64,000 nucleotides of DNA. Origin: an uncultured delta proteobacterium (GTDB lineage: Bacteria; Desulfobacterota; Binatia; UBA9968). Below, piece after piece: positions 108 through 3,315 of this stretch. The first letter of the stretch is position 1; the number at the start of each line of letters is the position of its first letter. Position numbers and translations under genes: made by a program. Where the stretch lies: positions 64,001 through 128,000 of the forward strand of contig CAVUZH010000025.1 in assembly GCA_963745835.1 (NCBI GenBank). The letters are read 5' to 3'. Under the pieces are notes generated by a model that worked only from the letters and a program-made list of their open reading frames with translations, did not search any database and had not been told where the DNA came from.

Positions 108-1226
108 ATGAGTGACAGATCGACTTTCGCTCGGAGTATTTGTCACTGTTTCACCATGCCGGCGGCATCACCGTATCGCGGCATCGGTTTCATTGCACTT
201 GCAATGGCATTCTTTCTAACCGGCCCCTACTTCGCGTCCGCGCAGACGTCTTCCTCGGCTAGACTGCAAAAAGCGGTGGCTATGGTCGGCGCGCGCAGCG
301 GAGCCTCTTGGCCGCTTTGGTTGGCGAAAGACGGCGGCTATTACCAGAAACACGGCCTCGACGTCGAGCTGGTGTATGCGGTTCACCCGGCGCCCATGGC
401 AGCCGTGATCAGCGGCCAGGCGGTGATGACTTCCACAGGGGCCGATCTAGGCTTACTTGCAGCCTTCAGAGACCCATCGTTGACTCTGAACGGGAGCTTC
501 TTGAACAAAGGCAGTTTCGCCATGGTCGCTGCAAAAAATCTGAGTCGCATGGAACAACTTTCCGGCAAGAAAATCGGCATCGGCAGAGTCGGCGACCCTC
601 CTTATTACATGAGCATCAGCCTGCTGGAAAAATTCGGCGTGACGGCCCGGGACGTACAATGGGTTTCGATCGGTGTGGACGCCGCCGCGCGCGCCGCTGC
701 GTTGCAGGGTGGCCAAGTCGATGCGGCTCTCGTTACCGCGCCGTCTTATTTTCGGCTGGAAGCCGCTGGTTATCCGATTCTCGCGTCGGTGGCGGATTAT
801 GAGGACATTTATGTTTCAACCTATCATTTGTTCCGGAAAGAAACGGTTTTAAACACACCGAAGATCGCCGAAGCTTTCATCAAAGCCCACAGCGAAGCCA
901 TCAAGCGTTTTTACGATGATAAACCCTTCGCGGTTCAGACAATTTTTAAATATGGCGCCGCCCGGGATCAACAGGACGGAAGCAAAGTCTACGAGCTGTT
1001 CAACAAGAGCCGCAGTTTCGAACCGGTGCCCTACGTTCTCAAGGATTCGGTAAAAGCTGTCGTAGAGCGGCAGAGCCAGGCGCAACCGCAAATAAAGCAG
1101 TTCGACTTTTCGAAGGTCATCGACAACAGCATTGTCGACCGGCTTGCGAAAGAGGGATTTTTTCAGCAGATCTTCGGATCATCGATTAGAGAGTTGCAGC
1201 AGAAGCGTAAGTCGCAGTCTTTTTAG
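108..1226 (+). CDS. ABC-type solute-binding protein, NMT1/THI5/SsuA-like family
   Basis: Signal-like hydrophobic stretch (IGFIALAMAFFLTGPYFASAQ), WLAKDGGYYQKHGLDVEL, LSGKKIGI, AALQGGQVDA motifs; real start may be 156; no permease or ATPase adjacent. Confidence 0.85.
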   Translation: MSDRSTFARSICHCFTMPAASPYRGIGFIALAMAFFLTGPYFASAQTSSSARLQKAVAMVGARSGASWPLWLAKDGGYYQKHGLDVELVYAVHPAPMAAVISGQAVMTSTGADLGLLAAFRDPSLTLNGSFLNKGSFAMVAAKNLSRMEQLSGKKIGIGRVGDPPYYMSISLLEKFGVTARDVQWVSIGVDAAARAAALQGGQVDAALVTAPSYFRLEAAGYPILASVADYEDIYVSTYHLFRKETVLNTPKIAEAFIKAHSEAIKRFYDDKPFAVQTIFKYGAARDQQDGSKVYELFNKSRSFEPVPYVLKDSVKAVVERQSQAQPQIKQFDFSKVIDNSIVDRLAKEGFFQQIFGSSIRELQQKRKSQSF

Positions 1227-1275
1227 TCTAGCAGGGTTCCTGAAAAAACTCTGATTGCAGGCGGCTCCAAAAGAC

Positions 1276-2214
1276 TCAGAGGCGAGAGTAAGAAAAAGAG
1301 TAGATGTTGATAAAAGAGTTAAGAAAAGAGAGAAGTAAGAGAAAGAAAGAGAAAAGAGAGAAATGGGAGATTAAAAGAAGAAAAGAGATATAAGGTAGAA
1401 AAAATAGGATAGAAGAGAAAAGAAGAAGAGAGAAGAAAGAAGAGAAGTAGAGAGAGGAAAGAAAAGAAGAAAGAAAGAGAAAAAAGGAGAGAAGGAAAAG
1501 AAAAAAAAAAATATAAAAAAAAAGAGGAGAGAAAAAAAAGAGAGAAGAGATATGAAAAAGATAAAGATGAAAAAGATAAGGAAGAGAGGAAAGAAAAGAG
1601 AGAATGAAGAAGGGAAAGATAAGAGGAAAAATATAGAGAAGATATAATAGATAAAGAGAGAAAGGAATATGAGGGAAGAGAAGAAAAAGATAGATAAAGA
1701 AGAGAGAAAGAAAAGATAAGAAGAGAAAGAAAATGAGAAAAAATAAGTTTGAGAAAGGAAAAGAAGATAAGAGAAAGAGGATAAGTAAAAGAGGAGAAGA
1801 AAATAGGTGAGATGGAGAAGAGGAGAGAAGAGAGAGAGAAGATATAGGATAGAAGGAGAGGGAAAAGAGAGAAGAGAGGGAAGAAAGGATAATAGAAAGA
1901 GAGAGAAGAAAAAGGAAAAGATAAAATAGGTATAGGAGAAAAGAAGGATAGATAAGGAGAAGAGAAGAGAATAGGAGAGGGTAAAAGAAGAAGAAGGGGA
2001 ATGAGGAAGAGAGAGAGAGAAAGAAAAGAATAAGAAGATAGACGAGAAGGGTGGATAAGAAAAAAAGAAAAGAGAATAAGAGAGAAAGAAAAGGTATAAG
2101 AAGAGAGAAGATAAGAGCCTCTAGATTCGGGATAGATTCTCTACTACCGCCCGGACGCATAGCGATATCCAGCGTAGCTTTCGATACGTCGATTCCGACA
2201 AACAAGCTCTCTAC
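1276..2214 (-). pseudogene. IS110 transposase/recombinase: first ~33 codons intact, remainder corrupted to low-complexity sequence
   Basis: VVESLFVGIDVSKATLDIAMRPGGSRESIPN followed by F/L/S-rich sequence that keeps IS110 motif spacing (FPFFFFYP ~ LPVVVVNP; LLYIFPLIFP ~ LLxSVPGIGP; SSLYFSS ~ AALYMAA; LLSFLNSFI ~ LLTILNSMI). Confidence 0.75.
1284..2117 (+). repeat. ~830 bp A/G-rich low-complexity tract
   Basis: Only one C (position 2043) on the + strand, in an otherwise GC-rich window. Confidence 0.95.
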
Positions 2215-2328
2215 CACAATCCAATCCTCCTTCCTGTTAACCCCCTCCAGCATGGCTCAACCTTCCACATGATGCGGGCTTATCAGCCCAGGCAACTGTT
2301 CGAGCTCTCGCAGAGGCAGGACGGGAAG
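1285..2328 (-). mobile_element. IS110-family insertion sequence (degraded in this consensus)
   Basis: DEDD-type N-terminus FVGIDVSKATLDIA on minus strand; AG (CT on element strand) at both 1285-1286 and 2327-2328; removing the element joins CTCAGAGGCG-AG-GCGCGCGAGA; no terminal inverted repeats. Confidence 0.7.
2254..2306 (-). ncRNA. Candidate IS110 bridge-RNA donor-binding loop (partial)
   Basis: Minus strand folds as GCUCGA-[ACAGUUGCCU]-GGGCU(GAUA)AGCCC-[GCAUCAUGUGGAAGG]-UUGAGC, i.e. stem / large internal loop / hairpin, directly upstream of the transposase. Confidence 0.55.
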
Positions 2329-2340
2329 GCGCGCGAGATT

Positions 2341-2407
2341 GGCATATGGCTGATAGCCTATGGCGCACAGATCGAACCAAGGAAACATACGCCGTAAGCC
2401 ACCTGCC
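2341..2407. repeat. Imperfect 22-bp inverted repeat (REP-like host element flanking the IS110)
   Basis: GGCATATGGCTGATAGCCTATG (2341-2362) matches the reverse complement of 2386-2407 at 16/22 positions. Confidence 0.55.
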
Positions 2408-2430
2408 AACTATCGTTACGGAGGTGAACC

Positions 2431-3315
2431 ATGGGTAAATTTCGTATTCTATCGCACGCGCGCCTGCAAGAATGGGTCGCGGAAGAGAGCGGCTATTTCA
2501 AGCAGGTCGGTTTGGATTACGAGTTCGTTGTCAAACCGGCCGCGGGCTGGTCCGCCCATGTAGCGTCTACCGAATCGGTGCCGGAGGAAATAAAAAACGG
2601 CGCCTTCGAATCGTATGAAGCCGGCCGAGGCTGCGACGTCAGCGCCGCTTGCCATTGGGCGGTGAATATGGCGGCTTCTGCGGGACACGGCCGCATGTGG
2701 GCCCATGCCTACTCCGTCACTCCTTCAGGCATTTTCGTGCCGCCTGATTCTCCCATCGAAAAACCAGCCGATCTGGCCGGAGTCGATGTGACCGTCGGCT
2801 ATCATTCGGGCAGTCACTTTTCTACCCTGCAGGCGCTTGAGACCTTTCTCAAGCCCGAAGAGATAAAGCTCCACTTTGCCGGTCTGCCGTTAGACCGATT
2901 AGCTTTGATGGTCGATCGAAAGGTCGGGGCGGCGAGCCTGTACGGCGCTCCGATGTACGTGCTGGAGCAGCTCGGGTTCAGGAAAATTGTCGACACGACG
3001 TTCATGATCGGATTCCTGGTCGCCGCCGAGGTTAAGGACAGCGACGCCAAGCTCTACTTCGAGGCGTTGCGCCTTGCGCAGGTCGCGATCGATCTGGAAC
3101 CCGAGCGCTACAAGCATTATTTTTTGAACGAGCTGCCGGAGCGCTATCACGCCATGGTCGATGTCCGGACCTTCGGTATCGGCGAGCGGCTGGTGTTCGA
3201 GCCCTATACTCGAGAGATGTTTGAGCAAACGCATCGTTGGATGATGAACTGGAAAATGTTTCCAGCGGAGCAGTCGGGAAATTGGGCTTATGACGACCGC
3301 GGTGTCTGTAGATGA
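2431..3315 (+). CDS. Solute-binding-protein-fold protein (NMT1/THI5-like) without a signal peptide
   Basis: RBS GGAGGT; EWVAEESGYFKQVGLDYEF, PDSPIEKPADLAG motifs; no hydrophobic N-terminus. Confidence 0.75.
   Translation: MGKFRILSHARLQEWVAEESGYFKQVGLDYEFVVKPAAGWSAHVASTESVPEEIKNGAFESYEAGRGCDVSAACHWAVNMAASAGHGRMWAHAYSVTPSGIFVPPDSPIEKPADLAGVDVTVGYHSGSHFSTLQALETFLKPEEIKLHFAGLPLDRLALMVDRKVGAASLYGAPMYVLEQLGFRKIVDTTFMIGFLVAAEVKDSDAKLYFEALRLAQVAIDLEPERYKHYFLNELPERYHAMVDVRTFGIGERLVFEPYTREMFEQTHRWMMNWKMFPAEQSGNWAYDDRGVCR

Follow-up and report, generated by a model that had tools for sequence, protein, structure and literature searches.

A tract of almost pure purine near the start of the window (the whole stretch of 64,000 nucleotides from an uncultured delta proteobacterium that was analysed here) raises the question of what this DNA is, and whether it is DNA at all. 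The tract occupies positions 1287-2116 on the + strand, 830 nt, and is composed of 497 A, 261 G, 71 T and a single C, at 2043, so that the GC skew over it is +1.0. A single C in 830 nt means that there has been no later drift. The initial annotation had described about 830 bp with one C, which the base count bore out; its bounds for the tract, 1284-2214, had to be redrawn at 1287-2116.

An open reading frame of 325 aa on the minus strand (1276-2253), taken from the ORF list and its translation, spans the tract. It begins with an intact IS110-type N-terminus, FVGIDVSKATLDIAMRPGGSRESIPN (coded by 2117-2202), and then passes through the tract uninterrupted. The N-terminal part (…LFVGIDVSKATLDIAMRPGGSRESIPNLEA) is normal, and beyond it only the residues F, L, S, P, Y and I occur. 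The open frame is of little evidential value, because a strand free of G can stop only at TAA; the remaining two minus-strand frames have one stop each within the tract. A Pfam search of the 325-aa ORF gave no match, and no codon-position periodicity was detected in the tract (chi-square p = 0.25). Nor were there true tandem or dispersed repeats within it, the self-similarity being of the low-complexity kind only (60-80%). A 40-nt piece of the tract had no exact match in the metagenome contig collection, which is weak evidence.

The tract translation was aligned with 16 real homologues using MAFFT. In this alignment ELPVVVVNP of the homologues corresponds to FPFFFFYP in the tract, LLRSVPGIGP..LAELPELG..QIAALVGVAPL to LLYIFPLIFP..LSSLPYLF..HISSLFFFSPL, ALYMAA to SLYFSS, and KLLTILNSMI to LLLSFLNSFI. 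From FVGID to the stop codon there are 308 codons in the window and 307-311 in the five closest homologues. Since the fitting itself may inflate an apparent similarity, we also used an alignment-free test, in which the C-indicator of the tract was correlated with that of each homologue on the coding strand over all diagonals. The correlation peaked on a single diagonal, d = -6, for 8 of 9 homologues (r 0.13-0.25, where off-diagonal values had an sd of about 0.04); L039, the most distant of the nine, gave no diagonal peak.

The tract was further scored against a nucleotide profile built from 10 IS110 homologues, by banded dynamic programming whose emission table allowed for the conversion. The table was fixed after a first look at the data, and all controls were scored with the identical table. 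The tract reached 166 bits, 32 sd higher than 40 composition-preserving shuffles (-61.2 +/- 7.0 bits, maximum -42); the reversed tract scored -49 bits and four rotations -53 to -74. When 32 single homologues were scored against the tract, their ranking followed relatedness, and the best-fitting one (L016, 147 bits) carries both PF01548 and PF02371 in Pfam. The comparisons showed that the 830-nt tract is a base-by-base corrupted copy, or 'ghost', of a real IS110 transposase gene. Composition, the ghost-aware alignment and the conversion table described below all indicate that the ghost part (1287-2116, minus strand) runs from about codon 38 to the end of the transposase and reaches the right end of the IS. 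The initial annotation had proposed such a ghost on four IS110 motif pairs, all of which are present in the MAFFT alignment, and had made its case depend on an alignment better than that of shuffled sequence; at 166 against -61 +/- 7 bits, the proposal was upheld.

The N-terminal DEDD (RuvC-like) domain of IS110 transposases, PF01548, is intact here over only 36 residues, and the locus is missing from a genome-wide PF01548 scan. Here the decoded tract follows diagonals d = 0 to -4 and is in part out of frame. The C-terminal Transposase_20 region (PF02371, the domain with the conserved Ser) is the best-aligning part after decoding, with PGIGP..ELPELG..GVAPL..DSG matched by PLIFP..LPYLF..FSPL..YIF in the tract; as printed, its actual residues are destroyed.

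The substitution spectrum was tabulated on the coding (minus) strand at 220 alignment columns without variation among the 10 homologues. As no near-identical copy was found, precise counts of conversions and indels depend on homologues that share about 50-68% protein identity over the intact N-terminus. At these family-invariant bases the conversion was nearly deterministic. C was kept at 43 of 47 positions and T at 62 of 63. G was kept at none of 70, changing to T at 60 and to C at 10, and never to A. A was kept at 17 of 40 positions and changed to T at 20 and to C at 3. Read on the + strand, purines were copied and all C were replaced, by A in about 86-87% and by G in about 13-14% of cases; just over half of the T were replaced, with an A:G proportion like that at C. 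Ala>Ser and Val>Phe follow from the coding-strand change of G to T (C to A on the + strand), and the same rules account for Gly>Phe, Asp/Glu>Tyr and Lys>Phe and for the retention of Pro and Leu. The directional substitutions reported earlier for this tract (Ala>Ser, Val>Phe, mostly toward A on the + strand) thus reappear in the table as G>T at 60 of 70 sites. The changes are neither the transitions (C>T, G>A) nor the A-only changes by which enzymatic hypermutation would be recognised. A bit-mask scheme, in which the low bit of a 2-bit code is cleared (C>A, T>G), was rejected, as T to G occurred at just 3 of 40 sites.

The path of the dynamic programming and windowed diagonals placed three single-base insertions in the tract relative to the family, near 1968, 1799 and 1720, and the windowed diagonals shifted from 0 to -3/-4, then to -5 and finally to -6 along the tract. 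One whole-codon difference from the family lies near 2012, and a 12-nt difference at the variable C-terminus. By the same two methods a stretch of about 250 nt on the minus strand (approximately 1720-1968) is out of the family frame, after which the frame is regained; protein-level similarity is therefore lost in the middle of the alignment and comes back later. The earlier description of the ghost as standing in register at about the expected length was right as to length, and the three insertions went against it as to register.

Together with intact sequence on one side, the ghost forms a whole IS110-family element of 1040 bp (1287-2326, minus strand), delimited on its left by the end of homology and on its right by an interrupted REP-like repeat. 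In all five loci compared, similarity to related IS ends breaks off at 2324-2326. The non-coding left end of the IS (2227-2326, minus strand, 100 nt) is intact and 72-89% identical to left ends in three family genomes (G084, G088 and G089). It is followed by the intact 5′ part of the transposase coding sequence, recognised by translation (2117-2226, minus strand), with a candidate GTG start at 2226 after GGAGGA. The N-terminus encoded there is 50-68% identical to IS110 N-termini in 8 of the 89 other family genomes. An Rfam search over window positions 1100-2600 gave no match at E <= 1. One edge of the corruption lies inside the IS, at 2116/2117, leaving the first 210 bp of the element untouched; the other is no more than about 4 nt from the right end of the IS (1287), the first coding-strand G past the tract being at 1283.

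The left half of the REP-like target occupies 1243-1286 on the + strand and has at least 15 further matches in the same genome; the right half (2327-2375, + strand), identified by its sequence and the repeat copies, reads AG and then GCGCGCGAGA... The repeat is interrupted after GAGGCGAG, where copies elsewhere run on as ...GAGGCGAG GCGCGCGAA... Paralogous copies were uninterrupted (...CAGAGGCGAG GCGCGCGAA...) in 10 of the 11 inspected, and the empty site predicted by the initial annotation, CTCAGAGGCGAG joined directly to GCGCGCGAGA, is accordingly read through in these copies. The same core dinucleotide, CT in the orientation of the IS (AG on the + strand), occurs at both junctions, at 1286-1285 by the IS right end (1285-1286, minus strand) and again at 2328-2327. 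Insertion at a specific site of a repeated REP-like target, with no long target duplication, is as expected of the IS110 family. The repeat family itself (…GAAAAACTCTGGTTGCAGGCTGCTCAAAAAGATCCAGAGGCGAGGCGCGCGAAAAATCGACGAGC…) has at least 15 further matches in the genome, for example at C12:15735, C13:40774, C8:142484 and C3:179027, and many in the genus.

Outside the element, the left flanking gene encodes an NMT1/THI5-like substrate-binding protein (108-1226, + strand; PF09084, E = 1.1e-17), and the right flanking gene has a weak NMT1-like match (2431-3315, + strand; PF09084, E = 2.2e-4). The left flank is 95-97% identical to contig C481 of a close relative (G085) up to window position 1226, and the right flank 86-92% identical from 2420 onward. 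In that relative the two genes are 12 bp apart, with neither the repeat nor the IS. No other copy of the IS was found in its own genome (7.28 Mb, 25 contigs) by DNA search or by tblastn with the N-terminus; eight PF01548 matches above cut-off elsewhere in this genome proved to be different elements. A near-identical intact copy was likewise lacking in the 90 family genomes, in genome contigs (16 loci) and in metagenome contigs (28 loci). Judged from its ends and target, the real feature here is an ordinary IS110-family insertion in a REP-like repeat.

IS621, a member of the IS110 family of bridge recombinases, targets REP elements, with CT as the short core of the site (Durrant et al. 2024, PMC11208160). 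The present element resembles the elements in the sections of that paper used here in its DEDD-type N-terminus, in a C-terminal Transposase_20 region that is recognisable once decoded, in its REP-like target with CT on both sides and in the non-coding left end upstream of the gene. Unlike them it is short, 1040 bp with a left end of 100 nt, and four-fifths of it is unreadable as printed. Solo left-end remnants of a related IS, about 140 nt long, are found in two family genomes (G084:C183:335-469, L049, and G088:C23:29695-29823, L050). Both are cut after …VFVGI and continue into the same unrelated sequence, and are an old shared deletion remnant; consisting of the left end only, they were of no help in decoding the tract.

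We consider it highly probable, at close to nine chances in ten, that the tract is an assembly or base-calling artefact and not real DNA. A real 1040-bp IS110 insertion would then lie in the REP-like repeat, and its 3′ 830 bp as printed would differ from the actual DNA. From 2116 leftwards the + strand would have been written in a collapsed alphabet, with purines kept, C replaced and about half of the T turned to A, and three extra bases would have been added during this faulty writing. The fault would have arisen in single-molecule base-calling or in the consensus step of the assembler, and from there have entered the contig. The insertion was probably a minority variant, carried by one or very few long reads, with most cells lacking the IS. 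From 2116 on, the base-calls of the IS-bearing read, or a consensus built on it, would have collapsed, while IS-free reads would have mended the flanks as far as the junction and the interior of the IS would have had no correcting reads. With correcting reads for the flanks only, one edge would be expected at the IS end and the other inside the IS, as observed; a boundary at the IS end would also fit a process tied to the element.

The same assembly contains a second ghost. A scan of the whole assembly for less than 3% C in 200-nt windows found exactly two regions, the purine tract and C22:126861-127886. The second tract proper (G000:C22:126875-127866, L013 1376-2367) is 992 nt long and C-free on the + strand apart from 4 C (T 471, A 279, G 238); its composition drifts along its length, with C replaced by T, A or G. 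When its own translation, with X at stops, was used as a tblastn query, it proved to be a frameshifted ghost of a TylF-type O-methyltransferase gene, with E = 4e-9 and 9e-7 to paralogues in its own genome, one TylF-type paralogue matching PF05711 at 6e-47. On either side of the tract stands a copy of a 57-bp stretch, which two relatives (G088 and G085) have once only and without interruption. Where the other copy and both relatives have CC, the copy adjoining the tract has a single C. A corrupted gene within a false duplication is a mark of mis-assembly and not of a mobile element, and its presence in the same assembly argues for an artefact at the IS110 locus also.

When the whole genome was searched by FFT for an intact sequence from which the C22 tract could derive, only the tract itself and composition-driven matches were returned. 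Two G-rich regions flagged by the FFT scan, C18:399182-399543 and C3:800-1000, look like normal G+C-rich sequence and were set aside. The first of these is 360 nt with more than 50% G on the + strand, is rich in GGNGGN and apparently codes for a Gly-rich repeat, and looks natural. CheckM-type figures for the assembly (G000) are 97.1% completeness and 9.33% contamination, for 25 contigs totalling 7.28 Mb; more than one strain or organism may be present in the bin.

Runs of at least 158 nt without C or without G were sought in 90 genomes of the family. They occurred in 7 of the 20 genomes with no more than 100 contigs and were absent from the 70 more fragmented ones (Fisher p = 1e-5; 2.8e-4 when G000 and G051 are left out), contig number being a proxy for long-read assembly and not platform metadata. 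Absence from fragmented assemblies is no proof of unreality, because short-read assemblers would break at such tracts. That similar runs are seen only in low-contig assemblies of the family, beside homopolymer and (CA)n junk, argues for an artefact. The runs form a continuum from ghost-like tracts to homopolymers, the C-depleted A/G/T stretches of G050 and G088 grading into the latter, and homopolymers of such size are not credible bacterial DNA. The preference of the initial annotation for an artefact over hypermutation gains indirect support from the second ghost and from family tracts that grade into homopolymer junk.

As to where the fault arose, the low indel rate and the existence of phantom regions matching no read lean toward the consensus step, and the homopolymer and (CA)n companions lean toward base-calling. 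A counterpoint is that there are 3 indels in 830 nt although about half of the bases are wrong; so low a rate is odd for a failing signal and fits base-by-base copying. Among the public sequencing runs listed, 20 of 24 contain part of window positions 300-3300, the best with a share of 0.57 of the sampled words, which is not evidence either way.

Long-read metagenome assemblers have been reported to produce sequences matching no read, false duplications and single-read paths through minor variants (Trigodet et al., bioRxiv 10.1101/2025.04.22.649783). Like the phantom sequences in the sections of that preprint used here, the tract stands in an otherwise good contig without a counterpart elsewhere, its companion on C22 lies within a false direct duplication, and the contig apparently follows an IS or gene insertion variant that is absent from relatives. 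Degenerate stretches and false duplications in assemblies of long-read type, with contig number as the proxy, are also what we found. The phantom sequences have no BLAST homology to reads, and their content is left undescribed in those sections, whereas the present tract can be decoded position by position. Nanopore base-calling is a second parallel: telomere repeats are miscalled strand-specifically and with length roughly kept, for example TTAGGG as TTAAAA (Tan et al., bioRxiv 10.1101/2022.01.11.475254). The substitutions in the tract are likewise systematic and strand-specific, and length is roughly kept, but the miscalls in the part of that preprint used here concern short tandem repeats and not a unique coding sequence of 830 nt.

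Of the other explanations, the one that survives best, improbable as it is, is a real library molecule that was damaged or mis-synthesised in vitro, through loss of purines on one strand or a skewed supply of nucleotides, and was then sequenced correctly. Polymerase bypass of apurinic sites has a filling spectrum like the replacement spectrum of the tract, where about 87% of the fills were A and 13% G, in like proportion for G sites (60:10) and converted A sites (20:3); the replacement spectrum of the C22 tract, however, differs and drifts along its length. The effect is strand-specific and the register is kept, with three indels only, but the loss of 70 of 70 invariant G with the outside untouched and a sharp edge is hard to achieve chemically. 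A strand with about 55% mismatches is one that ordinary polymerases are hardly able to make, and the homopolymer and (CA)n junk of the sister assemblies could not be produced by templated copying.

Less probable again is strand-specific hypermutation of a new IS in vivo, in which the purines of the coding strand were removed or became unreadable and were copied as T by the A-rule. The one-strand G>T and A>T spectrum suits this, but saturation is total, with 0 of 70 G kept and one C re-appearing. One edge coincides with the IS end, yet the corruption leaves out the initial 210 bp of the element. Both ghost tracts lie in DNA absent from close relatives, but the one on C22 follows other rules and lies within a 57-bp duplication typical of mis-assembly. 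Such tracts were seen in low-contig assemblies alone, beside poly-N junk, and the 40-nt piece without an exact match in the metagenome contig collection also speaks against them as real DNA.

Biological hypermutation (APOBEC-type C>U editing, fungal RIP and DGR adenine mutagenesis) makes dense directional changes with length and register kept. These changes are transitions, or fall at A only, and to our knowledge they are never saturating; here, by contrast, both purines of one strand went to T, and G was lost completely. We know of no mechanism for saturating, element-confined hypermutation of this kind. That the tract is real, with the coding-strand purines of a new IS110 copy non-instructive over 830 nt and copied by the A-rule in a saturating, strand-specific and element-confined manner, is very doubtful indeed; if true, it might represent an unknown way of killing incoming mobile DNA, with the TylF ghost on C22 as a second victim. 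Chance abutment of a natural low-complexity polypurine tract on a truncated IS110 gene is barely credible, for although composition explains why all three minus-strand frames are open (apart from the single stops in two of them), and there is neither a Pfam match for the 325-aa ORF nor codon periodicity, it was refuted by the diagonal peak in 8 of 9 homologues and by a ghost-aware alignment 32 sd over shuffles, and homologue scores that rank by relatedness and a fitting length (308 codons, against 307-311) also oppose it.

If the tract is an artefact, the locus is biologically unremarkable, a further IS110-family insertion at a REP-like site. For quality control, it illustrates that a 'nonsense' stretch in a long-read MAG can be decoded as a real gene corrupted almost in register. 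The corrupted tract yields a spurious 325-aa ORF, and such stretches would mislead searches of these genomes for hypermutation, H-DNA motifs, low-complexity proteins or unusual repeats. A simple search for long stretches devoid of one base detects them, as in the 7 of 20 low-contig assemblies of this one family.

The individual runs in the family were varied. A poly-T of 424 was present in G009 (L088, C14), and a poly-G of 188 plus a poly-A of 53 in G049 (L090, C12). In G088, from the same genus as the window (L093, C25), more than 3 kb of C-depleted sequence surrounds about 650 nt of poly-T/poly-A. The run in G051 (L092, C14:575564-575730) consists of about 23 tandem copies of GGAGAAT; it is among the seven hits, was dropped in the stricter Fisher test and may be a natural repeat rather than junk. 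G047 (L089 on C1, L109 on C5) has a poly-C of about 55, a poly-A of 277, and (CA)n of hundreds of nt plus poly-A, and contains G-free junk also. A rule that ghost-like tracts are always C-free on the contig + strand was dropped, given this G-free junk and the small number of places inspected (n = 4). Just upstream of the poly-C/poly-A block of G047:C1, about 300 nt (L089 1101-1400) have 1-5% T and are possibly a T-depleted ghost. Finally, in G050 (L091, C16:53400-54350) a 500-nt C-free stretch of A, G and T is reached by progressive loss of C, which declines in steps from 24% to 0% within about 500 nt before rising again; the host gene looks like an NRPS adenylation-domain gene, from a YISGSTG..KGV motif recognised by eye.
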